A stretch of 64,000 nucleotides of DNA from an uncultured Acidobacteriota bacterium. Lineage in GTDB: Bacteria > Acidobacteriota > UBA6911 > RPQK01 > JAPXNP01. Position 1 is the stretch's first letter; every line of letters begins with the position of its first letter. The DNA lies in assembly GCA_963777605.1 (NCBI GenBank), contig CAVZRV010000013.1:150520-214519 (forward strand). The letters run 5' to 3'. A program made the translations under genes and the position numbers. The notes beneath the pieces are model-generated. The model searched no databases. It was not told the origin of the DNA and saw only the letters and a program-made list of their open reading frames with translations. Positions 7,024 through 49,106 of the stretch are shown here, piece by piece.

Positions 7024-7126
7024 CAGGTTTCGGGCCCTGTGCAACGGTCCCCCCGAACCATGTCAGGTCCGGAAGGAAGCAGCATTAAGGGGACCCGATC
7101 GTGTGCCGCAGGTAACCCGAAGCCTG
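7024..7126 (+). ncRNA. ffs: Small SRP RNA (4.5S)
   Basis: Conserved TCAGGTCCGGAAGGAAGCAGC domain IV, closing stem CAGGTTTCGGG/CCCGAAGCCTG, canonical position upstream of dnaX. Confidence 0.93.
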
Positions 7127-22662: not shown

Positions 22663-24174
<1,512 letters not shown>

Positions 24175-24386
24175 CAGGTGCGATAAAATCTACTCCCCTC
24201 GCGTTGTCGCCTTCTCGTCCGGTTGTCAAAAATCTTTAAGCGATGTTGAACTCGATCGTGCCGATAAGGTACGATTAAGTTTCGACCCGAGGTCACGAGA
24301 GAACGTGGCCAGGTTCTTTGACAATCTGGAGTGTACAGGGCAAATAGTCACAAGTTTACCCGGGAATTGCGGAAAGGCAATTTCTA

Positions 24387-27349
<2,963 letters not shown>

Positions 27350-27469
27350 AGAATTTGCCTTTCAGGCGAATCCAGGGTCTTGTGGCTGCCCTGACACTCC
27401 AGATTGCGTTTCGACTGGAGTCATTTCATGAGAACGAGATGACTCCAGTCGAGGCCGGAATTCTCGGTT

Positions 27470-27587
27470 TTCCGGCGATCGTAGCGAGGGGGAAACACCT
27501 GTTCCCATTTCGAACACAGCAGTTAAGCCCCTCAGCGCCGATGATACTGCACTGGTGACGGTGTGGGAAAGTAGGTCGTCGCCGGGA
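27470..27587 (+). rRNA. rrf: 5S rRNA
   Basis: CCGGCGA...CACCTGTTCCCATTTCGAACACAGCAGTTAAG...AGTAGGTCGTCGCCGG. Confidence 0.96.
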
Positions 27588-32489: not shown

Positions 32490-33983
32490 ATGCATGACCA
32501 TGAAGCGGGTTTAGATACGATGAATTTCAGCGGATTCCTGCAATCCTTGGGGAGGGGCGAGGCGCGGGGAGTCAGCCGGCTCTACCTGGGAGCCGTCACG
32601 GCATTCTTTCTCCTCGGCGTGTCGCTCGCGGCACTGTTGCGCCTCGAACTCCTTGGCAGCGACGGGGGCATCCTTGGACCGGTGAATTTCGAGCGTCTCA
32701 CGTCGATGCACGGGATCATCATGCTCTTTCTGGTCGCATTTCCGGCCATTCCGGGTGTTCTCGGCAATCTGCTCCTGCCCGATATGCTGGGAGGGGGTCG
32801 ACTGGCTCTACCCCGCCTCAACCTCGCCGGGTTTTCCTTCTACGTGCTGGGCGGCCTGCTGTTGATTTCGGCGTTACTGAACGGAGGAATGGATGGGACC
32901 TGGATGATGTTGCCGCCCTTCTCGGTTCACGAGGCGGGAGGAAACCTGGTGGGCCTTCTCGGAGTGGCCCTGGTCGGCGTGTCGCTGGTTTGCCTCGCAC
33001 TGGTCTTCCTGGTGTCGTTTCACCGGGTGCGGGCAGAGGCCTGGGGTCGTCTTCGGCCATTCGCCTGGTCTGTTTACTGTTCTTCGCTGGTGACCCTCCT
33101 CTGTTTCCCGCTACTGATCGGCCTGGTCCTGCTGCTGGCTGCCGGACACCTGCTGGGTGGCTCGATTTTCGACATTGCAGGCGGGGGCGACTCGGGACTT
33201 TATCGAACCTTGTTTTGGATCTTTGCCAGGCCCGCTTTCTATGCCGTGATCCTTCCGCCGTTGGGCGTGATATCGGAAATTCTGGACAGCCGTCGTGGTC
33301 TCCAGTTCAGCGGAGACCGGATTCTCTTCGGCTCGATGGGAGCGATTTCCGTGTTCGGCCTGTTCGGAGCAGGAGCCCACTGGATGACGGTCGGGTCGTC
33401 CGGCCCGGTGGTCCTGATGTCCGGATTGCTCAACGTCCTGACCGTGATTCCGTTTTTCCTGATTCTGATCCGCTGGCTGCAGATTCTGCTGGCCTGTCGT
33501 GATCAGTGGGGGGCGCCGCTGATGTTTGCGCTCGCGAGTATCCTGCTCGCACTGATTGGCGGCTTGTCGGGGCTCATTCTAGGAGAGCCGGGAGCGAATC
33601 CGCACATCCATGCGACCCTCTTTGTGGTCGGCCACCTCCACTTTCTGCTGGCCGGAACGGTGCTGGCAGCTTACCTCGGAGGGTTGCACTACTGGTGGCC
33701 GGACCTGGCCGGCCGGTCGTTTTCAGAGGGAATGGGCATTCTCGGGGCCCTGTTGCTATTCGTAGGAGTGAATGTCACCTTTTTGCCCCAGTTCGCCGCC
33801 GGATTTGCCGGTCTTCCCCGCCGACTGGCGGATTACCCGCCTGAATTCGGCGGGTACCAGGTGCTTTCTACGGCCGGGATGAGCCTGTTGGTCATTGGCT
33901 ATCTGATGCCGATGGTCTACCTCGGGTGGAGTCTTCGTTTTGGCGAAAAGACCCGGGATCGACTGTTGCGGGCGCGGGCTTGA
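32490..33983 (+). CDS. Heme-copper oxidase subunit I-like protein with degenerate CuB site
   Basis: LLRLEL, SMHGIIMLF, GGGD..LY..LFW, HATLFVVGHLHF, G.PRR...YP, about 12 TM helices. Confidence 0.85.
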   Translation: MHDHEAGLDTMNFSGFLQSLGRGEARGVSRLYLGAVTAFFLLGVSLAALLRLELLGSDGGILGPVNFERLTSMHGIIMLFLVAFPAIPGVLGNLLLPDMLGGGRLALPRLNLAGFSFYVLGGLLLISALLNGGMDGTWMMLPPFSVHEAGGNLVGLLGVALVGVSLVCLALVFLVSFHRVRAEAWGRLRPFAWSVYCSSLVTLLCFPLLIGLVLLLAAGHLLGGSIFDIAGGGDSGLYRTLFWIFARPAFYAVILPPLGVISEILDSRRGLQFSGDRILFGSMGAISVFGLFGAGAHWMTVGSSGPVVLMSGLLNVLTVIPFFLILIRWLQILLACRDQWGAPLMFALASILLALIGGLSGLILGEPGANPHIHATLFVVGHLHFLLAGTVLAAYLGGLHYWWPDLAGRSFSEGMGILGALLLFVGVNVTFLPQFAAGFAGLPRRLADYPPEFGGYQVLSTAGMSLLVIGYLMPMVYLGWSLRFGEKTRDRLLRARA

Positions 33984-34017
33984 TATTTCTAACCGATCGA
34001 TAGAGGGAGCGTGGGTT

Positions 34018-34776
34018 TTGAAGCTCAAGGATAAAGTCGCGATTGTGACCGGTGCGAGTAGTGGAATGGGGCGAGCCATCGCGGAGCGCTTCGTCAGAGA
34101 AGGTGCTGCGGTAGTTCTTTGTGGACGAGACCGTCGAAAAGGGGAAGCAGCCCTCGAGGAGATCACTGCCGATGGTGGGGAGGCTCGCCTTGTCTGTGGG
34201 AGTGTTGCGGAGCCGGAGGTCAACCGGGAACTCGTGCGGACCGCCGCAGCTGAATTTGGCGGAATCGACATCCTGGTTCCGAATGCCGGACTGCTTGGGC
34301 TGGGCTCGGTCACGGGTGTTGATTGGGATACCTGGCACGAGACGATCAACGTCAACCTCAACGGTGTCTTCTATCTCCTCCGCTACGGAATACCGGAACT
34401 CCAGAAGCGGTCCAGCGGGGCAATCGTCGTCACTGGTTCGATTGCCGCTTACAAGGGATTTCCTAACCACGCCGCCTACTGTGCTTCCAAAGGTGCACTG
34501 GTGCCGTTCGTCAAACAGGTAGCCGTTGATTACGGCCCGGACATCCGGGCCAACATCATTTGCCCGGGACCGGTTGACACTCCGCTCATATGGGACTCGG
34601 CGGCAGCGTTTCCGGACCCCGAGAAGGCGGTCTCGGATGTCGCTGAAAAGACCTTGATGAAGCGCCTGGGGACGCCGAAGGACATTGCCGACCTGGTGCT
34701 TTTCCTGGCTTCTGATGAGTCGGCCTGGATCACTGGGGCCGCCTTAACGATCGACGGCGGCGTGACCTGTTTGTAG
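34018..34776 (+). CDS. SDR family oxidoreductase
   Basis: TGASSGMG, PNAG, YCASK, ICPG.VDT, IDGG. Confidence 0.92.
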   Translation: MKLKDKVAIVTGASSGMGRAIAERFVREGAAVVLCGRDRRKGEAALEEITADGGEARLVCGSVAEPEVNRELVRTAAAEFGGIDILVPNAGLLGLGSVTGVDWDTWHETINVNLNGVFYLLRYGIPELQKRSSGAIVVTGSIAAYKGFPNHAAYCASKGALVPFVKQVAVDYGPDIRANIICPGPVDTPLIWDSAAAFPDPEKAVSDVAEKTLMKRLGTPKDIADLVLFLASDESAWITGAALTIDGGVTCL

Positions 34777-34860
34777 GTTTCTGAAATCTCCAATCAGGGT
34801 TACGGGTCAACCCGGCTGCCACCGGCACCCTTTGATCAGCGACCGCATCTTTAACTGTTA

Positions 34861-37131
34861 ATGAGTAATGAAGCTCCTGAGAAAGCCGAACTGCCGGAAA
34901 CCACGACGGAAACACTGGCGATTACGGGAATGACCTGTGCCAATTGTGTGGCGGCGCTCGAGAAAGGCCTCAACAAACTGGATGGAGTGGTTGACGTCTC
35001 CGTGAACCTGGCCTCGGAACGGGCCCAGGTCTGCTACCTGCCGGAGCGACTCGGCCACGAAGACCTGGTGCGGCAGGTAGAACGTGTCGGCTACGGGGTT
35101 GTGGATATTCCGGACGAGATGGCCCCGGGAGCCCTTGACCTGGAACGGGAGGCCCGAGAGACCGAGGTTCGGCGTCAGGAGCGCTACTTTGTTGTCGGTG
35201 CAATTCTGACCGCACCGCTGCTCGCACTGGGCATGGCGCGCGATTTTGGTCTTCTTGGACTCTGGGCACAGGAATCCTGGGTCAACTGGCTTTTCTGGGG
35301 ACTGGCGACGCCGGTGCAGTTCTACGTGGGGCGCCAGTACTACGTAAACGGCTGGAAGTCTCTCCGTAACGGCTCCGCGAACATGGATGTTCTCGTGGCC
35401 CTCGGGTCGAGTGTGGCCTATTTCTTTTCCGTTGTCGTGACTCTTGGACTGGCTTCGGGACACGTCTACTTCGAAACCTCGGCGGCAATCATCACCCTGA
35501 TTGTGACCGGCAAGTTGCTCGAGGCCCGGGCCAAGGGGAGGACCAGCGAGGCCATCAAGCGCCTGCTGCGCCTCCAGCCCAAACGCGCCCTCGTCGTTCG
35601 TGCGGATGTGGAGGTTGAAGTCCCGGTCTCCGAAGTGCGCCGTGGCGACCTGATTCGGGTCAAGCCGGGCGAGAGTTTCCCGGTTGACGGAGTCGTTCTG
35701 GACGGGACAACGTCGGTGGACGAAAGCATGATTTCGGGCGAGAGTCTGCCGGTCTCCAAGCAGACCGGTGATCGTCTGATTGCCGGAACCCACAATCTCG
35801 ACGGATCGATACTTTTTCAAACCGAGGCGGTCGGGCATGACACCGTTCTGGCGCAGATTATCCGCCTGGTGGAATCGGCTCAGGCGAGCCGGGCCCCGGT
35901 CCAGCGGATCGTGGATCAGGTCGCCGCGGTTTTCGTTCCGGTGGTCGTTGCGTTGGCGATTCTGACTTTCGGAATCTGGTACCTGCTCGGCGCCGGGTTT
36001 GTGCCTTCGTTGATCCGTCTCGTTGCTGTCCTGGTCATTGCCTGCCCCTGTGCCATGGGACTGGCAACCCCGACGGCAATTATGGTCGGGACCGGACGGG
36101 GCGCCGAGTCCGGGATCCTGTTTCGGAGCAGCGAGGCATTGGAGCGAGCCCATCGCCTGAATGCCCTGGTCCTCGACAAGACCGGGACTGTGACTGAAGG
36201 ACGTCCCGAAGTGACCGGTTTCGTCGTTGATCCCGGTGTTGTGAAGGAGGATATTTTGCGCCTGGCCGCAGCGCTCGAGCAGCGCTCCGAGCACCCTATC
36301 GCGCAAGCCGTGGTGCGGGCCGCGGAAACCGTGGGCGGGAGCCTCCCGTCCCCGACGGAATTCCGCAATTACAGTGGGCGGGGCGTCGAAGGAATGGTAG
36401 AAGGTCAGTCCCTCTGCATTGGAACGCGGGAATTTCTTGAAGGGAAGGGAATCGACCTGCACCGCCTGGAGCGGGAATGGGCGGAGCTTGCTGGAAAGGG
36501 GGAAACCGTTGTCGGAGTTGCTATTGAGGGAGGCCTCGTCGGTCTCTTCGGGCTTGCCGATGCGCTTCGCCCGGAAAGTCCCGGGATTGTTGGCGAGTTG
36601 AAGGAGATGGGCCTGAAGGTGTTCCTGGTGACCGGTGACAATCGGGCGACAGCCGAGGCCATCGGCGCCAGACTCGACGTCGACGGTGTCGAAGGGGAGG
36701 TGCGTCCCGAAGGCAAGGCTGAATACGTCAAGCGTCTCCAGGAAAGTGGTCTGCGCGTGGGTATGGTGGGAGACGGAATCAATGACGCTCCAGCCCTCGC
36801 CCAGTCCGACGTCGGAATCGCCATGGGAACCGGAACCGACGTGGCCATTGAAGCGGCTGACGTCACTTTGGTCGGCGGCGGGATTGCCTCGGTCCCCCGG
36901 GCACTTCGGCTCAGCCGCGCGACCATGAGAACGATCTGGGAGAACCTGACTTGGGCGTTCGGCTACAACGTCATCCTGATTCCGGTTGCCGCCGGCGTTC
37001 TTTCCCCGTTCGACTGGGCCCCCGAGTTTCTTCGCCACCTCCACCCGATCCTGGCGGCCCTGGCGATGGCCCTGAGTTCGGTCAGCGTGGTCACGAACTC
37101 CCTCCGGCTCCGCCGGAAACGACTGGGGTAG
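34861..37131 (+). CDS. copA: Cu(I)-translocating P1B-type ATPase
   Basis: GMTCANC metal-binding domain, CPC, DKTGT, SEHP, GDGINDAP, YN and MALSS motifs. Confidence 0.95.
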   Translation: MSNEAPEKAELPETTTETLAITGMTCANCVAALEKGLNKLDGVVDVSVNLASERAQVCYLPERLGHEDLVRQVERVGYGVVDIPDEMAPGALDLEREARETEVRRQERYFVVGAILTAPLLALGMARDFGLLGLWAQESWVNWLFWGLATPVQFYVGRQYYVNGWKSLRNGSANMDVLVALGSSVAYFFSVVVTLGLASGHVYFETSAAIITLIVTGKLLEARAKGRTSEAIKRLLRLQPKRALVVRADVEVEVPVSEVRRGDLIRVKPGESFPVDGVVLDGTTSVDESMISGESLPVSKQTGDRLIAGTHNLDGSILFQTEAVGHDTVLAQIIRLVESAQASRAPVQRIVDQVAAVFVPVVVALAILTFGIWYLLGAGFVPSLIRLVAVLVIACPCAMGLATPTAIMVGTGRGAESGILFRSSEALERAHRLNALVLDKTGTVTEGRPEVTGFVVDPGVVKEDILRLAAALEQRSEHPIAQAVVRAAETVGGSLPSPTEFRNYSGRGVEGMVEGQSLCIGTREFLEGKGIDLHRLEREWAELAGKGETVVGVAIEGGLVGLFGLADALRPESPGIVGELKEMGLKVFLVTGDNRATAEAIGARLDVDGVEGEVRPEGKAEYVKRLQESGLRVGMVGDGINDAPALAQSDVGIAMGTGTDVAIEAADVTLVGGGIASVPRALRLSRATMRTIWENLTWAFGYNVILIPVAAGVLSPFDWAPEFLRHLHPILAALAMALSSVSVVTNSLRLRRKRLG

Positions 37132-37134
37132 GGC

Positions 37135-37233
37135 GTTCCTGGTTTCTGGTTCCTGGTTTCTGGTTTTGCCGGAGTAATTCAGGCAGCCTGCCTGGGATGT
37201 TTTCCGGGCAGCTTGCCCGGCGAATACATTCTC
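37135..37233. repeat. Dispersed composite repeat, copy 1 (heptamer tract plus two palindromes)
   Basis: (GGTTYCT)n, then GAGTAATTCAGGCAGCCTGCCTGG...CCGGGCAGCTTGCCCGGCG...ACATTCTC. Second copy at 38653-38753. Confidence 0.75.
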
Positions 37234-37415
37234 GAACCTGAAACTTCGTCAACATCGCTCAAGAGATTACCGGTGGCCTGACTTGTCTGGTCCCACAGAA
37301 TGTTACCCATGATCCTGACGGAGCCCTGCACCCCAGAAACCCGGAACCACGGAACCCGGAACCAGAATCTCCCCCGCAAGAATCCTGTATCTTAGAAAAA
37401 ACAGGAGGTTTTTCT

Positions 37416-37616
37416 ATGGCACAAGTTTGGGATGTTGTATGTGGAATGAAGGGAACCACGGAGAAGTGGAAATCCGTGTCGGAATATAAAGGAAAGCGTT
37501 ACTACTTTTGCTGTGACGGCTGCAAGGGAGCATTCGAACGGTCGCCCGACTATCACTTGGGAAACTTCGCCGAAGAGCATCCGAACGAGGCGGCAACTCC
37601 CTCGGAAAGTAAGTGA
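37416..37616 (+). CDS. YHS domain protein
   Basis: DVVCGM...YKGKRYYFCCDGCK..F...P..Y, AGGAGG SD. Next to copA. Confidence 0.88.
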   Translation: MAQVWDVVCGMKGTTEKWKSVSEYKGKRYYFCCDGCKGAFERSPDYHLGNFAEEHPNEAATPSESK

Positions 37617-37661: not shown

Positions 37662-38610
37662 ATGACTGGTCCCGTGGTCCACACCGTTCGAGGCCCGATT
37701 CCTGCCGATATGCTCGGTCGGACCCTCATGCACGAGCACCTGCTCGTGGACTTCGTCGGGGCCGGCCGGATCGGGCCCGGGCGATACGATCCCGACGAGG
37801 CATTCAAGGTACTGTTGCCCTATCTCAAGGCATTGCGCGACCAGGGTTTCGATGCCTTCGTGGAATGTACCCCGATGTACCTGGGTCGGGATCCGGAGCT
37901 CTTTCGCCGACTTTCGGCAGCTTCCGGGCTTCACCTCCTGACCAACACGGGCATGTATGCGGCCGGCGAGCGCGCCGGGTGAACCCGAACCCTACCTGCC
38001 CAAATACGCGTTCGAGCTGTCGGCCTCCGAGTTGGCGGGGACGTGGCTGAAGGAGTGGTACGAAGGGATTGCGGGTACGGGGATCCGACCGGGATTCATC
38101 AAGACCGGAGTGACTCCGGGCGGTTCACTTCGGCCGATTTCAGAAAAGATCATTCGAGCGGCGGCACATACCGTTCGCCGGACGGGACTGGCGATGGCCT
38201 GTCACACCGTGGAGGGAACCTCGGCCATGAGGATTCTCGAGATCTTCGCCGAAGAGGACGTTCCGGCTCACCGCTTCATCTACGTCCATGCTCAAGGTGA
38301 AAAGAGACCGGAGCTACCATCGAAAGGTCGCCGCGGCGGGTGGATGGGTTGAACTGGACGGAATCGGCCCTCAAAGCGCCGACCTTCACGCCGACGCCGT
38401 CATCGAACTGCTCGAACAGGGTTATGAGGACCGGATTCTGCTCAGCCAGGATGCCGGCTGGTACCGTCCCGGAGAGCCGGCGGCGGCGAGATCCGCGGTT
38501 TTACTTACCTGTGGGACGAATTCGTCCCGCTGCTCCGGCGACGGGGTGTTCCCGATGAGACCATCGACCACATCCTCGTCCACAACCCACGAGAGGCTCT
38601 GGCCGTCTAA
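37662..38610 (+). CDS. Phosphotriesterase-family amidohydrolase, three apparent frameshifts
   Basis: TVRGPI...TLMHEH, GFIKTG, CHT, YVH, LLSQDAGWY and ILVHNPREAL* are spread across successive frames. Confidence 0.8.
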
Positions 38611-38652
38611 ACCGAACCCGGGGCGGGGCTGACTGCAACTTCATCTGGCTCA

Positions 38653-38753
38653 GTTCCTGGTTCCTGGTTTCTCGGTCCTGGAGGGAGAGTAATCCAGGCA
38701 GCCCTGCCTGGTATGGCGGCCGGGCAGCTTGCCCGGCGGAAGTGAACATTCTC
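38653..38753. repeat. Dispersed composite repeat, copy 2
   Basis: Same heptamer tract and CAGGCAGCCCTGCCTG / CCGGGCAGCTTGCCCGG palindromes as 37135-37233. Confidence 0.75.
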
Positions 38754-38767
38754 AATCCAGGATACCG

Positions 38768-38938
38768 TCACTTCTTTGAGGGTAGCGACGCAGGTGAGTC
38801 GGATTTTTTGGGGCGGTGCGACACGTCGCACGACTTGCTCATTCAGGTAGGCACTCCCATCTTGGGGAGGATCCAGACTTGAAGAGCAAGCCAGAGGCCG
38901 ATGAAAAGAACAACCAGTATGAGATCGCCAAACTCCAT
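38768..38938 (-). CDS. Putative small membrane selenoprotein (56 aa, UxxxxC)
   Basis: GAGGA SD, then MEFGDLILVVLFIGLWLALQVWILPKMGVPT-UGA-MSKSCDVSHRPKKSDSPASLPSKK*. Perfect GTGCGAC-GT-GTCGCAC hairpin starts 11 nt after the UGA. Confidence 0.65.
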
Positions 38939-39031
38939 TTGAAACTATCCTCGGTTCTTTCGCTTCTTTAGATAATACCATTCAATTACCGAACCAGAAT
39001 TGCAAGATTTGTTCAGATAGGAGCCAATGCA

Positions 39032-39541
39032 ATGAGACTTTTCGTACCAGTGGCGGTGTTCTCGGTCTTGATGATGTCATTGTGGAGCGCGCCGGGAGTG
39101 GGAGATCAGGCGCCCGATTTCAGCCTCAAAGGTTCGGACGGGAAGACTTATCATTTGTCCGATTTCCGCGGCAAGATGCCGGTTGTGCTGGCGTGGTTCC
39201 CAAAAGCCTTCACCGGTGGCTGAACGCTGGAATGCAAATCGCTGCGTGACAGCGGTCAGGAACTCAAGGACCACAACGTTACTTACTTTGCCGCCAGTGT
39301 GGACGATGCCGAGACCAACCGGAAATTCGCCGAGTCTCTCGAACTCAACTACCCCATCCTGAGTGACCCGAATAAGAGTGTCGCCGCATCTTACGGCGTT
39401 CTCAATGACTCTGGAACCTACGCACAACGCTGGACCTTCTACATCGACAAGGACGGCAAGATCGCCCGCATCGACAAGTCGGTCAAGCCCGGATCGAGCG
39501 GCAGCGACCTGGTGGAGAGCCTGAAGTCCCTCGGCTGGTAG
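39032..39541 (+). CDS. Selenocysteine-containing peroxiredoxin (AhpC/TSA, BCP-like), exported
   Basis: ORFs 39032-39223 and 39299-39541 share one frame. The TGA at 39221-39223 occupies the peroxidatic position ([13 protein letters not shown]). SECIS-like hairpin at 39240-39254. Confidence 0.88.
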
Positions 39542-39704
39542 GACCAACCTGCCAGGTTGTCCTGTGGACTGGGCACGATCGTCGGACGATTCACCGGCTC
39601 GAAAAGCAAGCCTGTGGCAGGCTCCCGCTCGGGAGGTTCCGACCCCGAGGCAGGCGAGGACACTTGTTCAGCGCAGGCAGCGGTGTGCGCGTTAGAATAC
39701 AAGC

Positions 39705-40682: not shown

Positions 40683-40759
40683 GGGCGGTTAGCTCAGCTG
40701 GTTAGAGCGCCGGTCTTACAAACCGGAGGTCACTGGTTCGATCCCAGTACCGCCCACCA
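40683..40759 (+). tRNA. tRNA-Val(TAC)
   Basis: GGGCGGTTAGCTCAG...CCGGT-CTTACAA-ACCGG...GGTTCGATCCC...CCGCCCACCA. Confidence 0.97.
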
Positions 40760-40766
40760 TTTAAAA

Positions 40767-41095
40767 TCAACAACTTACAGCGATTCGGAAAAGCAGTACG
40801 GTCCAGGCGTAAGGGCAGGGTAAAGGCATCGCCCATAAAGGCCCCCTCAGCGGCCCGTGACGGCGTTTTGTTTCCCCCCGGCCTAGCACCCGCTCGAACT
40901 CCGCTTCCGGCACCGCAGCATACTTCTGGGCACGGCTCGAGAGCTTCTTGTCGATCCCGGCTTCGGCCAAGGTGGGGCGGACCTCGGTTCCCGGAGAGTA
41001 CCGAGCTTTCATAGCGTCGCCACCGGTCGCCAACCCCACCGTCTGCTTCTGGAGTGCGATCAGTTCACCCAGGCGGCGCTCGGCACGGAACTGGA
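40767..41095 (-). pseudogene. Phage protein fragment
   Basis: RAERRLGELI...PTLAEAGIDKKLSSRAQKYAAVPEAEFE resembles a phage-associated helical segment. No proper start. Confidence 0.45.
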
Positions 41096-41312
41096 ATCAC
41101 TGGAAAAGCCCGAGGCCGAAGAACGGAAGAAATCTAGCCAACTTCAAGGAAAGAACTCTGACGGGGATCCCATCTTCGGTGGCGGTACCGTACCACCACC
41201 GAAGAAAAGAGGAAGAACCCGCGACATCGTGGGCGCTGCGGTGGGTATGGCCCTGGAGGCCGGGGGGGACGGCGTCACCAGGGCCGGCTTGCCGGTTCGC
41301 TGTCGGCAAGGT

Positions 41313-41798
41313 TCATAAATACCGAATCGCGAAGGTGTCTCCGGGCAATTCCGGCACCCACGGCCATGCTGCCAGCAACTCGGAGTCGCTCGGTTCCCGC
41401 ACTGCCTTCGGTTCATGCTGGAGTGCGAGGGCAACCTGGGCACGTTGACGTTCACGTTCTTCCCATTGATCGTGCGCCATCGCCAGGGCCCGCTGCTCCT
41501 CTTCGGGAGTGGTCTCGCCCAGTTCCATGAGCCGGCCACAGTCGCCAAACTGCTCTGCTTCCCTGGGTGTCCCGGTTTGTTCGTTCCACCATCGTGCCGG
41601 TCGGGTTCCGGGTCTCGCCTTGATCCGCCGCTGGATGAGCATATCCCGGTGAGTCTGCCAGGCCAGGCGCTCTGCACGCTCCGATGCGAACGGCGTCAGG
41701 TACGGGCCGCCCCGGGCGTCGATCAGCCAGCGCATTTCATCTTCGGACAGCTCAGTTCGCATCATTTCTCGGTCAATTCTCGTGCGTTTCGTCGTCAT
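41313..41798 (-). CDS. Satellite hypothetical protein
   Basis: 161-aa ORF 2 nt downstream of terS, with a RPGTRPARWW motif. Confidence 0.65.
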   Translation of the reverse strand: MTTKRTRIDREMMRTELSEDEMRWLIDARGGPYLTPFASERAERLAWQTHRDMLIQRRIKARPGTRPARWWNEQTGTPREAEQFGDCGRLMELGETTPEEEQRALAMAHDQWEERERQRAQVALALQHEPKAVREPSDSELLAAWPWVPELPGDTFAIRYL

Positions 41799-41800
41799 TT

Positions 41801-42130
41801 TTACACTCCCGACGGTCGCCCAGGGCGATCCCTGAGCGGTTCAATGTCCAGGTTGAGGGCTTTCAGGCTGTGCCGCTTCGATGATTCAGCATCCCTGATA
41901 CTCGCGAGCAGCGGGTGAGCCTTCTTTTGCCCGAAGCGATCCTCTACCAGGTCGCCCTCGACAGCGACAATGGCCCGCCAACGGGCGATGTCGTCTTCGG
42001 CTCGGCAGGCGGTTGTAAGGTGGGCCAGACCACCGGGATCGTCGATCTGATAGGCGTCCTGGATGGCCCGCCAGAGGGCTTTCCCCGGTTTTCGCAGGCC
42101 CGCCGGCGGTTTCGGGATCGTGTCAGTCAT
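41801..42130 (-). CDS. Phage terminase small subunit (P27-like)
   Basis: PKPP.GL...GKALW...DRFGQKKAHPLL...ALNL, typical of HK97/P27-type TerS. Confidence 0.8.
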   Translation of the reverse strand: MTDTIPKPPAGLRKPGKALWRAIQDAYQIDDPGGLAHLTTACRAEDDIARWRAIVAVEGDLVEDRFGQKKAHPLLASIRDAESSKRHSLKALNLDIEPLRDRPGRPSGV

Positions 42131-42412
42131 ATGTAAAGCCAAATTTTTTCAAAGCAAATGCTCAGTTCTGCGCGTGTCCTTGGCCCCAACCGGTTTCGCA
42201 AAACAAAAAGTTTTCAGGATTCACAGTAGCCCCCGGCCCCTCTTGTAGTCGGTCCTGGGCTCCGCCTCCCGTCAGAGACGAAGCCCGTGTGACCGTTCGG
42301 CGGCGTTGCCCACTCGAGGTGCCGCGCCCCTCGTCCACCTATTCCCTAAAGGCCCCGGTGGACTAGGGTGCCGGACTGCCAGCCGTGAAGCCGGAGCCCG
42401 GTCAGGAGAAAA

Positions 42413-43576
42413 CTAGATCGGGCTCGCCGTTGCCAAGCTGCCGTAAACGAACGCGCCGGCCCGGAAGATGGCAAATGCAATCCGCTCTTCGAGCCTCATG
42501 GCGATGAGATTCTGCGTGAAGTAGCTGTCGTGACTATTGCTCACCTCGAACACGGCCGCTTGCCTGTCGAAAATCTGGCACATTTGCGAGGATCCGACCA
42601 GGAAGGTGCCCGACGTCATCGCCGTGCTGACGATTGTCGGGATCCCCCAAATGCTGTACGCCGTCATCGGCTGATTGCTTAGGGGATCAACTGCCAGGTA
42701 GCGCCCGATGTTGCTGGACCCGGATGCGTCATCCTTCAACCCGCAGATCGCCCAGAAATCCGAAGGATTCAATACGATGAAGTTTGCTTCCTCGTCGGTT
42801 TCGGCGAGCTGGGAGATGGCGTGCCGAAGGTAATCCAAACGGTTGTCGCTGGTCGCGATCCGCGCCGTCTCGAAGGCGGTGGCATTCGTGACCAGTCCGC
42901 TGAGATGGACGCCCGTGCCGGAGCCGGTCAGAAGTTCGGCCTCCTCAACCTTTTTCAAGTCGTACAGGAGTTCCTGGTTGACGATCCGCTCCAGCTCGGG
43001 AAGGTCGTCGAGCACTTGTTTCGATGCGCTGATCCAGGACGCGTACAGTTGAACGTTCGAGTACTCGATCGTAAGACCGAGAGTCTGTTCAGCCTTCGCG
43101 CTGGCTTCGACCTGGGGACTGGCACCAGGAGTGGGTGCCGCGACTTTTAACCACTCGATCCTGTTGCTGTCGGTCGCCTTGGCCGGGAGGATATCCCGAA
43201 GGGTAAGCCGGCGCTTCGCGGCGGTTACGTAGTCGGTTCGGCTCGGCGTCAAGATGCCCGGGGTCGAGGATCCTGCACCACTTGAAGTGATGGTCGTGGC
43301 CCCGCGGGTCGGAGGAATCAGCCCCGGCAGCGCGATCGCGACGTTTCGCTTCACGTGTTTGAGCTCGGCGAACTTGTCGATGCTCCGGGAGAGTCCTCGG
43401 CCAGGTGAGGCCCCGCCTCCAGGCGGAACGTCGGATCCATCCGAAAACGTCTGCCGCGCGCTGATCTCGTTGAGCTGCTCGGCCAGAGCCTGACGGTTGA
43501 GGCCGTCTCCTCGCCTTGCGCCGGGCCTTTTTGAATTCCTCTTGAATTTCGGCTTTCGATATTGTCAATTATTCAT
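42413..43576 (-). CDS. HK97-fold major capsid protein; N-terminal scaffold/delta region apparently frameshifted
   Basis: E...K, ASKQVLDD.P.L, ELL.GSG, IVLNPSD, WGIP, F.QNLIAMR.EER...R.AF. The reading frame extends upstream of 43354 (QALAEQLNEI). Confidence 0.85.
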
Positions 43577-43777
43577 GATTATTCATCCAATCCTATAGTT
43601 GTAGAGGCACAATTTGTTTAGGGAAACGGATTGGATCGGCAGGAGCTCCCGACATCCCGTCGAGCAGCTTGCTGCGTGCATCCCGCGACACAGCATGATC
43701 CCCTTTGCGTTTCGTTCTTCCCGAACGTCTGGCGCGCCCGGCATCCCGCGCGAGTCGGCCCACAATATCCACGTACA

Positions 43778-44014
43778 TTATACGTTCCGATGCTGACATC
43801 TAGTTACTATCTCAATCTCTCGAGTTGAGCGATGCGGCGATCGTGACGCATTGATGATATTGAGAGCCACCCTGATCAGCTCATTCTGCGCCTTGATCAG
43901 TGCCACAACATCAGGAACGCGCTCGCCGGTGTCCTCGACCTCGCAAAGTCGTTGCGCGTGCTCGTGCGTTAATTGGGTCAAACAATCAATCGCGATCTTC
44001 GCTTCGTCGCTCAT
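43778..44014 (-). CDS. Satellite hypothetical protein
   Basis: MSDEAKIAID... preceded by a GGAGGAG SD. Confidence 0.5.
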   Translation of the reverse strand: MSDEAKIAIDCLTQLTHEHAQRLCEVEDTGERVPDVVALIKAQNELIRVALNIINASRSPHRSTREIEIVTRCQHRNV

Positions 44015-44465
44015 CGCTCCTCCAGTCGGTTCGGGTTGATTCTCTTCGATGCAACGCCCGCCGATGTCGTGATTCGACCCGGCGCGTGATTTCCCCATCC
44101 ACCCAATCAAGGAGAGTCACCGGGTTAATTTCTTCGCGGAACGCTCGATCCGTGATCTCTTGCAATCGTTTACGGAAGAGCGTTTGTCGATACTGGGATA
44201 AGTTCATTGCAGCCGCCCCATCCGTTTCAGGATCGCGACGATTGCCGATCCGGACTTCAGCGCCGAAAGTCAAGACGTCACCGTCGGCCAGCACCTCGCG
44301 ATGAACATCTCCAAACTCCTGAATGATCGCGTCCTCGAATAATCGCATCACCGGAAGCGGTCCCGATAACGTCATTTCGACCTGATCAAAATCCGAATCG
44401 CTGATTGAGCTACTGAGCCCTATTCGATTTAGGCTTCTTTGAATTTGCTCCGTTGTTTTTCTCAT
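43986..44465 (-). CDS. Satellite hypothetical protein
   Basis: 159-aa ORF coupled by ATGA overlap to the upstream gene. Confidence 0.55.
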   Translation of the reverse strand: MRKTTEQIQRSLNRIGLSSSISDSDFDQVEMTLSGPLPVMRLFEDAIIQEFGDVHREVLADGDVLTFGAEVRIGNRRDPETDGAAAMNLSQYRQTLFRKRLQEITDRAFREEINPVTLLDWVDGEITRRVESRHRRALHRRESTRTDWRSDERRSEDRD

Positions 44466-44728
44466 CCGAAGACCGTTTCGACTACCTTCAATTCCAGGTT
44501 TTCCGACGTCTTCGGTCGCCAGTTATCCGTAAGGTCTTCTTCGATCCAATCCGCGAGTTCACGTAGATAATCAAGTGCTGTGTTCCGGTCGGTATCCTGA
44601 AGGATCCTTACCACAATCGGCCGAAAGTCCGATGTTTCCACTTGGTTGAGGTGCGCTTCGTCAATTTCAACTGCGGATCTTGCTTTGTCATTAATCTGAA
44701 TTGCTTCCATTCTGTCCTCCCATTGCAT
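44462..44728 (-). CDS. Satellite hypothetical protein
   Basis: 88-aa acidic ORF within the co-oriented gene run. Confidence 0.55.
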   Translation of the reverse strand: MQWEDRMEAIQINDKARSAVEIDEAHLNQVETSDFRPIVVRILQDTDRNTALDYLRELADWIEEDLTDNWRPKTSENLELKVVETVFG

Positions 44729-44733
44729 AACTG

Positions 44734-44961
44734 TTATTCCTCATCCTCGGGCCAGCTCGAACGCCGGCCCAATTTGCGGCTTGCAGGCAATCCCAAATAA
44801 TCGTCAGCCGGCGTCTCGTGATCGAAAAGGCTCGGCTCGACCTTACGGGGTTGTCGTCGTCGTCGTCGTCGTGGTGACGGTTCCCTGGACTCCTGATCGC
44901 GCCGATCGTAAAACCTGCTCACCGCGCCCCGGATCCTCTCTTCTCTCGTTGGTTCGCTCAT
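44734..44961 (-). CDS. Satellite hypothetical Arg-rich protein
   Basis: 75-aa ORF with an RRRRRR tract, downstream of the origin region. Confidence 0.45.
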   Translation of the reverse strand: MSEPTREERIRGAVSRFYDRRDQESREPSPRRRRRRQPRKVEPSLFDHETPADDYLGLPASRKLGRRSSWPEDEE

Positions 44962-44974
44962 GATTTCCCCACGA

Positions 44975-45252
44975 AGGCTGCCAAATCAGGCGCCCAAGTC
45001 TGCCAAATTCCAGGCACTGGCATAGTTGGCAGGGTTGGCAGACTTGGAAGGCTGCCACGTTGCGAAGGCTGCCACGAAGACTGCCACGAAGGCTGCCATA
45101 CTTGGCATACTTGGTATAAATATATATATATCAATAACTTAGACATGGTATTTATAGCGAAGACTGCCAAGTTTCGGATGAGCCCGAGGTTTGGCAGACT
45201 TCGATGCTCCAGCACCACTCGCCCAAGAAGGTTTGCTTGGCAGACTTGGCGT
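44975..45252. repeat. Putative replication origin (iterons plus AT-rich core)
   Basis: More than 10 CTGCCA/TTGGCA motifs in both orientations, 3x12-bp GAAGRCTGCCAY at 45064-45099, (TA)n tract at about 45115-45131. Confidence 0.7.
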
Positions 45253-46927
45253 GAAGCTCTTTTTTTGCTCGCCATAGGGTCCGTTCGGAGATGCCGGCCC
45301 GGTTTGCTTTCTTCACGACTTCACGGGAAGGCATCGGCCCGTTTCGGAGTAGATCCGCCAGGAATTCTTTTGCCTCGTCGAGTTGCGAATGGTCCTCGCC
45401 GTCGCCCAGGACATCCTCGGCCCTGAGTGAGCTTTCCCCGGTCCAAAAGAAGCGCCCTTCGTCAATCTTGTATCCAAGCGCCGGCCCTTCCGGTGTGAGG
45501 TTGTGCTTGACGTGAAAGATGGCACCCTTCCCCGGTTCCTCGGAATCAGCGCCGGCCAGTAGTCCGGAGCGGGCCGCCGCCATGAACCCGATGCTTCCCT
45601 GGCCTCGGTAGATCGCCTTTCCCTTGGTAGCCTTCGTCAAGTGCCGCAGTACGAGGAAGGCGCATCGGTGGCGCTCTGCGAGTTCGGCCATTCGAGACAG
45701 GAGTGGCCTAACGTGATTGTCGCGGAAGGCGTCCACGTTCGCCCCCAGGTAAACCGAGAGCGGATCAATGACGGTGAGGACCGGCTTAACCGTGGTCAGA
45801 TATTCATCCAGTTTGTCGAGTCCGTCAGCCTCGAAGGAAAGCAACTCGGTCAGGCAGAACAGGCGCCGGAAGTCTGCACCCATCGCCTCGAATCGAGGTT
45901 TGATCGTGTCCGCTAATCCGTCCTCGCCATTCAGGAAAAGGACGTTTGCCGGTGCCCGATCGGCCATTCCAGGCACCCCTCGGCCCAGGGTTACTCCCGT
46001 CGCGATCGCCTGGGTGATGAAGGTCTTTCCGATTCCGGGATCCCCATCGAGCAGCGTCAACTTCCCGATCGGAAGATACGGGTAACTGAGGAATTCAGTC
46101 TCGGTGGGCACCACGTCAACCAGGCAGACCAGTTTGCTCGGTCCTGATTTTTCGGTTTCCGGCGCCCAGTCTCGAAGCCGATCCACCAGAACGCTCAGTT
46201 CCTCGCCGGCGTCGATAGGATCTTTGCCTGCGGCCCAATCGCTCACGTCGAAACCATCTTCACGGTCAGGAGCCAGGTCCAGCACCTTCACCGAGGCCGC
46301 CTTCCCGGAGAGAGCTTCGGCGATCTTTCGGCCACGCTTCCGGCCAGGGGCGTCGGAGTCCACCATCACGGTGACGTGCTTCCGGGCGAGCGTTGCGGTG
46401 TACGAATCGAGCCAGGGTGCCCCAGCGCCACCAGGTGCGGTTGTAGCCGTCAGGCCCATGCTCGTGAGCGTGTCGGCGTCTTTTTCGCCTTCCGGCAGGA
46501 ATACGTAATCCGCGCCAGCCAGCTCGGGCAGTCGATACAGCACCCGCTTGATGCCCTTCAGCCCCCATCTGCCATCGACGGTGTGAACCGGGAATTCCTT
46601 CCCCGGAGTCCGGCAGACATAAAAGAGCGGGTTGCCGGCCGAATCGGCGTACTCGTACCGCGCCAGGATCGGCTCCCCTTTGTAATCGTTGGGAAGTGTT
46701 CCGGGTTGATGTCCGTTTCCATTCGGCCAAGCTCCGAGGCCCTTCAGCGCCTCGATTACGGCTTGCTGATCGCATCCCGCGTGGCACTTGAGCAGCACTT
46801 TTCCGCCAGCCTCAGAAATGGACAGACTCGGGTTGCTGTCATCGTGGCCAGGACATAGTGCCGTCCAGCCGGCTCCGGTTTTCTTCACGCCCTGGAGTGC
46901 GGATAGAACGGTTTCGACGGCTGCCAT
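45152..46927 (-). CDS. Primase-helicase fusion (CHC2-like zinc finger, Toprim, RecA/AAA_25 helicase)
   Basis: CPGHDD..PSL...CHAGC, EGEKDAD, DSD.PG, GDPGIGKT Walker A, VIDP, LRH. Confidence 0.9.
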   Translation of the reverse strand: MAAVETVLSALQGVKKTGAGWTALCPGHDDSNPSLSISEAGGKVLLKCHAGCDQQAVIEALKGLGAWPNGNGHQPGTLPNDYKGEPILARYEYADSAGNPLFYVCRTPGKEFPVHTVDGRWGLKGIKRVLYRLPELAGADYVFLPEGEKDADTLTSMGLTATTAPGGAGAPWLDSYTATLARKHVTVMVDSDAPGRKRGRKIAEALSGKAASVKVLDLAPDREDGFDVSDWAAGKDPIDAGEELSVLVDRLRDWAPETEKSGPSKLVCLVDVVPTETEFLSYPYLPIGKLTLLDGDPGIGKTFITQAIATGVTLGRGVPGMADRAPANVLFLNGEDGLADTIKPRFEAMGADFRRLFCLTELLSFEADGLDKLDEYLTTVKPVLTVIDPLSVYLGANVDAFRDNHVRPLLSRMAELAERHRCAFLVLRHLTKATKGKAIYRGQGSIGFMAAARSGLLAGADSEEPGKGAIFHVKHNLTPEGPALGYKIDEGRFFWTGESSLRAEDVLGDGEDHSQLDEAKEFLADLLRNGPMPSREVVKKANRAGISERTLWRAKKELHAKSAKQTFLGEWCWSIEVCQTSGSSETWQSSL

Positions 46928-46928
46928 C

Positions 46929-47162
46929 TCAGCGGCCCGGCTCGCGGCGATGACTGAGCAGCCAACTATCGAGATCGGAAACCAGGTAGCGAACCGCCTT
47001 GCCCATCTTCAGGAAGGGCGGGCCGGGGGTCCGGTTGGCGAGGTCTCCATCGATGCGGGACTGGCGCAGAAACGAGACGGAGAGACCGATTCGGCGGGCC
47101 GCTTCCTTTTCGTCAATCACCGCGCCGGTACTTGCGTTTGTTTCGGTGGTGTTTCTTTTCAT
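46929..47162 (-). CDS. AlpA/excisionase-like HTH protein
   Basis: EKEAARRIGLS...GPPFLKMGKAVRY...DLDSWL. Confidence 0.85.
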   Translation of the reverse strand: MKRNTTETNASTGAVIDEKEAARRIGLSVSFLRQSRIDGDLANRTPGPPFLKMGKAVRYLVSDLDSWLLSHRREPGR

Positions 47163-47285
47163 GTCGAGTACATGATACACCACGGGAATGCACTAACGTA
47201 TTGCAAGCAAAGGACTTAGAGACTTATATCCTAGCGCGGAAATCAGGCTTTATGCGGGGTTGAGAAATTCCGGCGTAGTTTTATC

Positions 47286-47870
47286 CTACCTGGGGCCGGA
47301 AAGGTAGTTTTTGATCGCGTTGGAGAGTGGCTTGCCTCTCCGGGTGTCGAGCAGTTCAGTGGGAAGGGAAGCGGGGAGTCGCTGCGCGATCCGCTCCCGG
47401 AGATCTGCCGTGTTTCCGATATCGCGGGGCCTGCTTTCGATGACGTAAAGAGCCTGAACCGATGCCACGTAGAGGCCCGGAGGCCGATTCGCGACAGGAT
47501 ATCCGGGCAAGTCCTTGATTGCCCCCTTCTCAGCGTCGAATTGCCATCCCTGCTCAGCCAGGACAGCCATTACCCTGGCCGCTCCCCGGTCCAGTTTGGC
47601 AAGTCTCGCCCCGGCCTGAACGAGCCCCTTCAGTGTCGCCTTCCGGCTTTCGTCGATCGGACCTGGAATAGCCTTGACGGTTTCGAACGCCCGCGCCACC
47701 TTTTCGAGCTCGGCCTGGATCCCCGGCCGGCCCCCGATGGAGGCCAGCATAGGAAGGAAGCGAATCAGGAGCAATTCAAGCGGCTTCTTTCCGGGGGCCA
47801 TCCTGATCGGTTCTTCTACGTCGTCCGGTACGCTTCCAAAGAGCCCAAGCAATAACGCTCGATCATCCAC
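47286..47870 (-). CDS. Satellite hypothetical protein
   Basis: 194-aa ORF between int and alpA. Confidence 0.6.
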   Translation of the reverse strand: MDDRALLLGLFGSVPDDVEEPIRMAPGKKPLELLLIRFLPMLASIGGRPGIQAELEKVARAFETVKAIPGPIDESRKATLKGLVQAGARLAKLDRGAARVMAVLAEQGWQFDAEKGAIKDLPGYPVANRPPGLYVASVQALYVIESRPRDIGNTADLRERIAQRLPASLPTELLDTRRGKPLSNAIKNYLSGPR

Positions 47871-47930
47871 GATTCACCGCCTGTTCTTCAACATGGACAG
47901 AAACCACCAGTTTTTCAACGGCGGCCCGCT

Positions 47931-49106
47931 TTACCTGGGGGGCAAATGCGCATATCGCAGAGTCATTTTGAGATCAGAATGGCCCAGGAGTTCTCGCACC
48001 GTGTTCAAGTCCACGCCCGCCTGAACCAGCCGAGAAGCGAAATGATGCCGGAGATCATGCCAGCGGAATTTCTGGATCTTGGCAAGCCCCAGGACCGTTG
48101 CCCAGGACTTTTTCACGTTGTCCAGTGGTCCGCCCGATTCGGCGGGGAAGACATAGACCGCGCTCGGGTCGCTCTGCGTCTTCCATGATCTGAGGGTGCC
48201 GAGTACAATCAGTTCAGCGGGATATGCCGGGTCTGGCTGCTCTTGGCCGTGGGGCCGTGGATCGTCAGTAGTCCCTCCGCCAGGTTCAAGTCTGCCCACC
48301 GCATCCGGAAGAGCTCGCCCTGGCGGATTCCGGTGTGCATGGAAACCAGTACCATCGGCTTCAGGTAGTCGGCGAAGGGAACCGCTCTAAGGTCCGCGAG
48401 TAAAGGATATTTCCGGGCCGCTCTCCAGGCGTTCCCGCGATCCCTGGCTTGCCGCAGTTCCTCTTCCCGCGTGTCCAGCGCCTCGAGCAGGGCCTTCTGT
48501 TCTTTGGGGTCCAGGTAGCGGACGGGATCGTTGCGGTCTTCTTTGATCGGCTTCACGTTCCGCAGTGGGTGCTCTGCGATCTTGCCCCACTCGGCCGCCC
48601 GGCGAAGACAAGCCCGGATCGCCTGAACATCCCGGTTCACCGTCCTGGCCGTTCTCCCGGCCTTCAGCTTCCCAGTCCTGAACTTCTGAACGTGCCAGGG
48701 CGTGATGCCGGCCAGCGGCAGGGTCGAGAAGGTCCGCGAAGATGTTCCGGATCCGCGTCACCTGTTCCGCCCCGGATCGCGGATAGTGGGCCTTCATGAA
48801 GCTCTCGTAATCGTCGTCCAGGAACTTTTGTAGGGTGAGCTCGCCCGCTGTCGGTAATGTCGGCTCCTCGCCGATCTGGGCTTGCCCCAGCATCCCCTGG
48901 GCAACCTCTCGGGCCTTCTCTGGACTCATGGCAGGATAGCGGCCGAAGGCCTTGCGGCGGTGCCTGGCCCACTCCGCGTAATAGCTCATGGACCCGGAAG
49001 GCTGGACCCGGAGAACGAAGCCCTTCAGCCTCGTGTCGTAGACCTCGAACGGCTTCGAATTTGGTTTCAGAGTTTTGATCAGTTGCTTGCCGATGATGCC
49101 CTTCAT
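47931..49106 (-). CDS. Tyrosine integrase with arm-binding domain, two or more apparent frameshifts
   Basis: D..LKGF.LRV.PSG N-terminus, TGIRQGE, HDLRH, LLGH...MT.RYAH across three frames. Adjacent to the att repeat. Confidence 0.85.

Follow-up and report, generated by a model that had tools for sequence, protein, structure and literature searches.

SELENOK and SELENOS are small single-pass membrane proteins of the endoplasmic reticulum, with a short extracytoplasmic N-terminus and a disordered cytosolic tail that carries selenocysteine (Sec), and AcrZ, a partner of AcrB, has some 50 residues that form a helix at the N-terminus and a tail in the cytoplasm. In SELENOS, Sec188 is described as pairing with Cys174 (PMC3628699). 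Short bacterial selenoproteins include TsoA (LULAXC, NF045695), the dual-CXXC family OS_HP3/DW (NF041197), and a CC/Se motif family (NF041239) (PMC13188914). Here we describe a candidate gene for a small membrane selenoprotein on the minus strand of a 64,000-nucleotide stretch of DNA from an uncultured Acidobacteriota bacterium (assembly GCA_963777605.1, contig CAVZRV010000013.1, positions 150,520 to 214,519), to which we refer as the window. Conservation across homologs, a hairpin placed like a Sec insertion sequence (SECIS), and the gene content of the genome make it very likely that the locus is a genuine selenoprotein gene of an unnamed family, with its product and mechanism predicted.

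The locus resembles the canonical genes with an fdhF-type SECIS in having an in-frame UGA that aligns with Cys, a hairpin within the coding region, and G or GU in the apical loop, as well as selA, selB, selC, and selD in the genome. It differs from them in that the family is unrelated to those catalogued, and the stem is short (6 bp in the window), with its 5' arm on the partner Cys codon and a 3' arm that shifts in register. The predicted recoding mechanism is the ordinary bacterial one, but the protein family is not ordinary. In architecture, the nearest proteins are SELENOK and SELENOS, a likeness that we infer from layout; they share no homology with the present family (no Pfam match at E ≤ 10). 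In contrast to theirs, its Sec stands at the helix end in a tight U-x4-C motif and not C-terminally, and the protein is bacterial and about half the size. The TsoA, OS_HP3/DW, and CC/Se families are likewise defined by a Sec/Cys motif alone, from comparative genomics, but their models do not match the present family, which has U-x4-C spacing and a membrane helix. AcrZ has no homology to the family and no Cys/Sec motif, and most of the present loci lack a resistance-nodulation-division (RND) gene.

From its ATG, the gene encodes MEFGDLILVVLFIGLWLALQVWILPKMGVPT up to the in-frame TGA and then MSKSCDVSHRPKKSDSPASLPSKK up to the stop codon (translated with TGA as U; coordinates in Table 1). This places Sec at residue 32 (U32) and its partner Cys at residue 37 (C37), five codons apart, in a product of 56 residues. 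The GAGGA precedes the start in the window, and 85 of 121 distinct Sec-form homologs have a Shine-Dalgarno-like (SD-like) tetramer ahead of the start assumed for them. A preliminary description of this DNA had reported the GAGGA and given positions for the gene, the in-frame TGA, and the stop, all of which were correct when read again from the sequence. It had also held that the gene was absent from the track of open reading frames (ORFs) and would be missed or truncated by standard callers. The entry for this contig in the public protein collection is indeed the 31-residue truncated product alone (P0003), and the gene is thus cut off by standard calling.

We searched 41 related genomes in six frames and then ran a profile over 401 sampled genomes of the phylum Acidobacteriota. 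A clear homolog (E ≤ 3.5e-4) was found in 13 of the 41 related genomes, each with exactly one TGA and a match running well beyond it, and all 13 share the pattern [LM]P[KR]xG[VIM]xT-U-xxxx-C when TGA is read as U. Residues L19, W22, L24, P25, G28, T31, U32, and C37 are invariant in the alignment of these homologs (A1), and C37 is also invariant in alignment A4. The profile search detected the family in 110 of the 401 genomes and its Sec form in 109. These matches comprised 111 rows, 98 with one TGA and 13 without a stop. Twelve of the 13 stop-less rows end just before the TGA, which is found at the expected codon in all 12, and three further short matches also have it, so that all 15 partial matches carry a TGA; most of the short-match rows belong to a subfamily with the motif LPRLGVPT-U-[AG]-[VM]-P-x-P. 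The sole true Cys form among the rows from the phylum is L056 (CMSGAC), from genome G382. The TGA stands at the same aligned position in 35 of the 36 loci checked from the phylum; its position was checked directly in 35 Sec loci, and the other full-match rows rest on the stop count of the search tool.

Downstream of the TGA, all 122 distinct Sec sequences continue for 14 codons or more without a stop (median, 27). The next codon is ATG in 83 of them, including the window, and another codon (e.g., GCG, GCC, or CTG) in the other 39. Neither TAA nor TAG occurs at the Sec codon among 128 distinct homolog sequences. The preliminary description had looked to homologs with Cys or a conserved TGA at position 32 and coding sequence past it, and such homologs are what we found. 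Its UxxxxC motif fared less evenly: Cys stands at +5 in 104 of the 122 distinct Sec forms and at +6 in 2, but the motif does not extend to the U-[AG]-[VM]-P-x-P subfamily, which has no nearby Cys. In this second subfamily (L070-L083 and L138; e.g., G274:C56:1620-2290), the helix is followed by the LPRLGVPT-U-[AG]-[VM]-P-x-P motif with no Cys at +5, and a GC-rich hairpin of its own lies about 15 to 17 nt past the TGA. Sec alone, with no resolving Cys nearby, is the conserved feature of these sequences.

The hairpin of the window begins 11 nt past the TGA, and its inverted repeat had been placed correctly in the preliminary description; the 7-bp stem with a 2-nt loop that was drawn there cannot form, the count having gone one pair too far. 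The actual fold has a 6-bp stem and the tetraloop CGUG. Considered as a predicted structure, the window hairpin is significant only through comparison with the homologs. We counted perfect stems (score of at least 6) within 45 nt after the TGA in 121 distinct Sec sequences. Such a stem is present in 80% of them, compared with 11% of codon-shuffled sequences and 29% of the upstream 45-nt segments, and none of six Cys-form genes has a perfect stem at the SECIS position. The loops contain G in 119 of the 121 sequences and GU in 87 (the commonest are GUC, 26; GGUC, 20; and AGUU, 13), and the loop starts 16 to 24 nt after the UGA in 116. The distance criterion used by bSECISearch is about 16 to 37 nt from UGA to apical loop. 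The geometry of the family lies within this range, and in the window copy, with its CGUG loop, the distance is 17 nt.

The Cys codon always lies inside the 5' arm of the hairpin, and the remainder of the stem encodes varying residues (e.g., DVSH, EVPH, AGEH, QLTD, DLGSRD, and SVESRR), with pairing preserved. In an ungapped alignment of 23 sequences with a more distal hairpin (A3), 76.6% of cells pair, compared with 54.4% in shuffled alignments (0 of 500 shuffles reach the observed value) and 30 to 52% in slid registers; 37 cells are changed on both sides, compared with 14.3 in shuffles (0 of 500). It is important to note that the sequences are related, so the figures for the hairpin are not probabilities. 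The RNAalifold consensus is the same helix, with six of seven pairs compensated. The 13-sequence alignment that includes the window (A2) is weaker, with 75.6% of cells paired versus 68.8%, a value reached by 3 of 500 shuffles. Its fixed register is barely better than registers slid by 2, a small margin because the 3' arm shifts between lineages. The SECIS-position hairpin that had been claimed for the window is conserved in the family, maintained via compensatory changes, and has G/GU loops.

The genome (6.73 Mb in 53 contigs; 96.7% complete) has a tRNA-Sec (70.5 bits; called as tRNA-SeC with anticodon tca by ARAGORN), selB (354 bits; cutoff, 242), selA (528 bits; cutoff, 268), and selD (363 bits). 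The selD gene (G000:C7:931111-932034, minus strand) itself has one in-frame TGA, which would make the selenophosphate synthetase a selenoprotein as well. Across the 401-genome sample, selA was found in 301 genomes. Where the family is present, selA was found in 107 genomes and not found in 3; where it is absent, the counts are 194 and 97 (the 194 include three unpublished genomes, G018, G063, and G182, and fall to 191 without them; these three genomes enter into no other claim). Among carriers of the Sec form, 107 of 109 have selA; one of those in which it was not found, G355, is a 64%-complete assembly with a tRNA-Sec of 70.7 bits. G382, the only Cys-form genome, has no selA, selB, or tRNA-Sec over the cutoffs. 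The Sec machinery on which the preliminary description had made its selenoprotein reading depend is thus found in the genome, and the TGA and Cys homologs and the conserved hairpin also favor that reading.

The family extends well beyond the phylum. Of 600 candidate stretches from a pattern scan over 185,579 species genomes, at least 545 proved to be relatives. The best 80 loci come from Acidobacteriota lineages (30), Planctomycetota (16), Desulfobacterota/"Deltaproteobacteria" (13), Melainabacteria, Obscuribacterales, and other Cyanobacteria-labelled metagenome-assembled genomes (10), Myxococcales (3), Spirochaetes (2), Acidimicrobiia (2), Dormiibacterota (1), and others (3), and the 81 motif hits within these loci comprise 76 with TGA and 5 with Cys. 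As far as these matches can tell, this is a large, unnamed Sec/Cys family present in at least eight phyla. A HMMER scan of 1.84 billion protein representatives returned 1243 matches at E ≤ 1e-3. Among the best 150 of these, 97 have T-C-x4-C, 24 have W at the Sec site (which we read as TGA translated with a different genetic code), 9 stop at the preceding Thr, and 20 are other variants. The consensus of the Cys forms is W[VI]LPxxG[IV]PT-C-MSG[AS]-C, and Met follows the Cys at the Sec position in 78 of the 97.

No Pfam or NCBIfam model matched the Sec form at E ≤ 10 (18,950 NCBIfam models), and 10 Cys forms had no match in either collection at E ≤ 1 beyond chance-level hits. PADLOC matched neither form. 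A profile search of PDB gave chance transmembrane-helix matches alone (E > 0.2), tblastn against plasmids found no family match, and an Rfam search around the locus gave three chance matches (E > 1). The ESM Atlas places the protein in an unnamed cluster (score, 0.88), and every source that names a family member calls it a "hypothetical protein." That the protein could not be assigned to a characterized family had been said from the outset, and Pfam, NCBIfam, and PDB bear this out. A review from May 2026 tabulates 119 prokaryotic selenoprotein families and subfamilies (Table 1, PMC13188914), among which no row is a small membrane protein with U-x4-C. The deep-Sep article (PMC12013277) names three new hypothetical families; these have NCBIfam models according to Table 1 of PMC13188914, and none of those models matches. 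Full-text literature searches on the U-x4-C motif and on small membrane selenoproteins turned up nothing relevant. Within these collections, the predicted family is new, widespread, and unannotated, although it may still be listed in Table S2 of BSepDB (PMC13326102).

To place the motif relative to the membrane, we compared the charges on the two sides of the helix in 160 members. Lys and Arg average 0.41 in the N-terminal flank versus 1.69 in the 19 residues around the helix end, and Asp and Glu average 0.91 versus 0.24. More Lys and Arg are found on the C side in 78% of the members and fewer in 4%. Under the positive-inside rule, by which positively charged flanks stay in the cytoplasm, this bias predicts an N-out/C-in orientation, with U-x4-C on the cytoplasmic face. 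We infer an architecture of a short N-terminus, one hydrophobic helix, an interface motif, and a tail that is charged and variable.

In three Planctomycetota-type loci (L108, L129, and L132), the frame runs on from the Sec motif to a classical thioredoxin domain (WCPPC/WCGPC) without a stop, over a stretch that reaches from some 96 nt 5' of the Sec codon to a TAG. The same thioredoxin fusion is present in the Cys-form protein P0153, which scores 105.7 bits on TIGR01068, above the cutoff. The fused product would be a membrane-anchored U/C-x4-C-linker-thioredoxin of about 190 to 210 residues. At another locus (L092), the gene order is thioredoxin, Cys form, and a CcdA-like gene.

For the gene neighborhoods, stop-to-stop frames within 3.5 kb of 117 loci were clustered and one representative was annotated per cluster; five of the loci duplicate each other and many are related. 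At least 1 of 15 annotated clusters lies near the gene in 75 of the 117 loci. The most frequent partner is an RND permease, found in 23 loci of Acidobacteriota, Planctomycetota, and Melainabacteria-type genomes and in most of them immediately upstream in the same orientation. It is followed by extracytoplasmic function (ECF) sigma factors (15), a metallo-beta-lactamase-rhodanese fusion (13, often with ArsR [8]), DUF302 (12, immediately upstream in the same orientation), Usp (11), an FmdB-type zinc ribbon (11, directly downstream), zf-HC2 anti-sigma factors (10), and thioredoxin (9). A divergent peroxiredoxin-like selenoprotein is found in 8 loci, which include the window and are all near relatives; FeoB is found in 8 loci and hemerythrin in 7, and other partners include HlyD-type adaptors (6), sigma-54 activators, and protein kinases. 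None of the RND proteins reaches a curated NCBIfam cutoff; they score 407 to 466 bits on multidrug permease models versus 211 to 290 bits on the CusA/CzcA heavy-metal model. In the complete genome of a cultured bacterium, Desulfoluna limicola ASN36 (L101:5995-7000), a 51-residue Sec form (L101:5995-6150) stands directly 5' of two genes on the same strand, one for an ECF sigma factor and one for a zf-HC2 protein of small size (HxxxCxxC-type), a pair that we take to resemble the SigR/RsrA thiol-stress pair. The common theme among these neighbors suggests thiol, peroxide, and sulfide stress, and this theme is why we propose a thioredoxin-cycled selenenylsulfide at the membrane.

In the explanation that we favor, the UGA at 38845-38843 is, as the comparisons indicate, decoded as Sec by SelB and tRNA-Sec, directed by the short hairpin that overlaps the Cys37 codon. 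The predicted product is a single-pass membrane protein of 56 residues with a short acidic N-terminus facing outward, followed by one helix, by the interface motif W-[IV]-L-P-[KR]-x-G-[VI]-x-T-U-M-S-x-x-C on the cytoplasmic face, and by a charged tail of about 20 residues with little conservation. Sec32 and Cys37 would form a selenenylsulfide/selenol-thiol redox pair at the membrane surface that is reduced by thioredoxin and has oxidants or sulfane sulfur close to the membrane as its targets, in defense against thiol, oxidative, or sulfide stress. We hold this redox-pair mechanism, with its thioredoxin recycling and its role in stress defense, at somewhat under an even chance.

Several observations weigh against parts of this explanation. 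The hairpin of the window alone is at the level of chance (z, −0.06 for 81 nt and −0.20 for 55 nt, the latter with equally good folds in 71 of 200 shuffles), and whole-segment z-scores of minimum free energy are weak across the family (mean, −1.05 for 121 sequences; Sec versus Cys forms, Mann-Whitney p = 0.066). One carrier of the Sec form, G256 (95% complete), has no selA match; it has selB (363 bits) and tRNA-Sec (71.6 bits). The LPRLGVPT-U-[AG]-[VM]-P-x-P subfamily has no resolving Cys, and the homologs are mutually related, so that all counts overstate the independent support. The neighborhoods are heterogeneous, with even the top partner in only 23 of the 117 loci and no recurrent neighbor in 42. 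In the window, the neighbors on the copA side are metal genes (CopA and YHS), and the divergent peroxiredoxin-like neighbor has a signal-peptide-like N-terminus. Finally, a search for longer fused forms returned one protein, P0158, in which a zf-HC2 domain of cytoplasmic type precedes the helix; this fusion, if real, would make the motif face outward, but P0158 stands alone, on one contig, and the gene call may have joined two neighboring genes.

Were the TGA an ordinary stop, the locus would encode a 31-residue membrane peptide and a second tiny ORF re-initiated at the adjoining AUG (UGA-AUG), in line with the 31-residue form given by gene callers and with the ATG that follows the TGA in 83 of the 122 distinct Sec-type sequences. 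However, the Cys forms join both halves in one protein, with Cys at the TGA site and the Met internal (78 of 97), the TGA co-occurs with selA, and the hairpin at the SECIS position is found in TGA forms only. Moreover, re-initiation cannot account for the conservation because 39 of the 122 sequences have a codon other than ATG after the TGA, and we regard an ordinary stop as extremely improbable. A real gene could instead use U-x4-C to bind soft metals or metalloids (Cu(I), Hg, As, or Se) and pass them to CopA or RND pumps. Sec/Cys pairs bind soft metals tightly, the window gene lies 1.6 kb from the genes for a CopA-type P1B ATPase (with its HMA domain) and a YHS-domain protein, and RND genes (23 loci), HlyD-type adaptors (6), ArsR (8), and FeoB (8) recur near the family. 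Yet the RND proteins score higher on the multidrug permease models than on the CusA/CzcA model, adjacency to CopA among the recurrent clusters is confined to the locus of the window, and the thioredoxin fusions and the peroxiredoxin and rhodanese neighbors favor thiol chemistry. Metal binding and transfer are unlikely in our view, although metal binding and the redox pair are compatible with each other.

The membrane orientation and the partner of the protein leave room for two other readings. With the reverse topology (N-in, C-out), the Sec motif would be periplasmic and would work with CcdA/DsbD-type electron import and an exported peroxiredoxin-like selenoprotein. The signal-peptide-like peroxiredoxin selenoprotein that is divergent in the window and in seven related loci, the order of thioredoxin, Cys form, and CcdA-like membrane protein at L092, and the anti-sigma domain N-terminal to the helix of P0158 would all fit such an arrangement. 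The charge bias, which puts the C side in the cytoplasm in 78% of the 160 members and the reverse in 4%, and the classical TrxA type of the fused thioredoxins (P0153) speak against it, as does the doubtful standing of P0158 itself, and we consider the reverse topology somewhat less likely still than metal transfer. The small protein might also be an accessory subunit that docks on an RND pump in the manner of AcrZ, with the Sec/Cys motif as a redox switch. The RND permease gene adjoins it in 23 of the 117 loci, where the small gene is mostly directly downstream on the same strand, and the size and the layout of an N-terminal helix plus tail resemble those of AcrZ. But no Pfam family, that of AcrZ included, matched at E ≤ 10, and 94 of the 117 loci, the window among them, have no RND gene within 3.5 kb, which leaves this reading doubtful at best. 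The N-out/C-in redox pair remains the explanation that we prefer.

The surroundings of the locus in the window are listed in Table 1. The peroxiredoxin-like neighbor scores 124 bits on Pfam AhpC-TSA with its TGA read through, and the 55 nt past this TGA fold at a z of −2.55; gene calling splits this gene in two. A copper/respiratory group adjoins the locus. Between them lies a phosphotriesterase-family (PTE) gene in three frames, whose first and second pieces align with successive stretches of the Pfam profile; either two frameshifts have made it a pseudogene or the assembly is in error. Two copies of an intergenic repeat, each of about 90 nt and with 83 to 86% identity, stand 1.5 kb from each other; the repeat is built of GTTCCTGGTTTCTGG-type units and then CCTGCCTGG...CCGGGCAGCTTGCCCGGCG. 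One copy stands just past copA and the other just past the 3' end of the small selenoprotein gene, and the repeat may be a REP-like or terminator element. Further along, a tRNA-Val is followed by minus-strand phage-like genes in what looks like an integrated element at the tRNA. The window also contains a complete rRNA operon, a signal recognition particle (SRP) RNA, and a group II intron.

Table 1. Features of the candidate selenoprotein locus and of its surroundings in the window
Feature	Position	Strand	Basis or remark
Small selenoprotein gene (predicted), 56 residues	38768-38938	-	Translation with TGA as U; homologs
Start codon ATG	38938-38936	-	
Stop codon TGA	38770-38768	-	
Shine-Dalgarno-like GAGGA	38948-38952	-	9 nt 5' of ATG; read from sequence
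Predicted single transmembrane helix, about residues 6-24, LILVVLFIGLWLALQVWIL	38867-38923	-	Hydrophobic stretch in translation
In-frame TGA (U32), motif LP[KR]xG[VI]xT-U	38843-38845	-	TGA conserved at aligned position
Cys37 codon TGC, U-x4-C partner, also within the 5' arm of the hairpin	38828-38830	-	C37 conservation
SECIS-like hairpin, stem GUGCGA/UCGCAC (38831-38826 with 38821-38816), loop CGUG (38825-38822)	38816-38831	-	Fold
AhpC/TSA peroxiredoxin-like selenoprotein (predicted), divergent neighbor	39032-39544	+	In-frame TGA 39221-39223 (FTGG-U-TLEC)
Copper/respiratory group	32490-37616	+	
Heme-copper oxidase subunit I	32490-33983	+	
SDR	33940-34776	+	
CopA-type P1B ATPase with HMA domain	34861-37131	+	
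YHS-domain protein	37416-37616	+	
PTE, first frame	37662-37982	+	
PTE, second frame	37957-38352	+	
PTE, third frame	38288-38632	+	
Intergenic repeat, copy past copA	37135-37222	+	
Intergenic repeat, copy past the small selenoprotein gene	38653-38738	+	
tRNA-Val	40683-40759		
Apparent integrated element	40683-49106		Phage-like genes on the minus strand
Capsid protein	42413-43354	-	
AAA_25 protein	45152-46927	-	
Integrase-type Arm DNA-binding domain	48387-49106	-	
SRP RNA	7028-7125		
rRNA operon (16S, 23S, 5S)	22663-27587		Complete
Group II intron	56333-58294		
Group II intron, domains D1-D4	56333-56471		
Group II intron, catalytic part	58149-58294		

Taken as a whole, the comparisons indicate that the gene is very probably real and that its family, found in soil and sediment bacteria, is cut by gene callers at the Sec codon. 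The Sec form is found in about a quarter of the Acidobacteriota genomes sampled and also in Planctomycetota, Desulfobacterota, Myxococcota, and non-photosynthetic relatives of cyanobacteria. Inventories of selenoproteins use annotated Cys/Sec pairs, and the cut form, at about 30 residues of a 50- to 60-residue protein, lies below most limits for calling and clustering. The links to thioredoxin, peroxiredoxin, rhodanese/persulfide dioxygenase, and SigR/RsrA-like regulator pairs suggest that the protein acts under thiol or sulfide stress. More speculatively, and with a rather small chance of being right, the family could be the first bacterial architectural counterpart of selenoproteins K and S: an inner-face selenol, recycled by thioredoxin, that would either reduce oxidants close to the membrane or ferry sulfane sulfur or selenium between enzymes of the membrane and rhodanese/persulfide-dioxygenase systems of the cytoplasm. 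The family would then be among the commonest overlooked selenoproteins of soil bacteria and one reason that these phyla keep the Sec trait. Recognizing the family would correct the annotation in hundreds of genomes, would offer a short model of a minimal SECIS embedded in the codons of the partner Cys, and would bring a membrane-anchored class into the bacterial selenoproteome.

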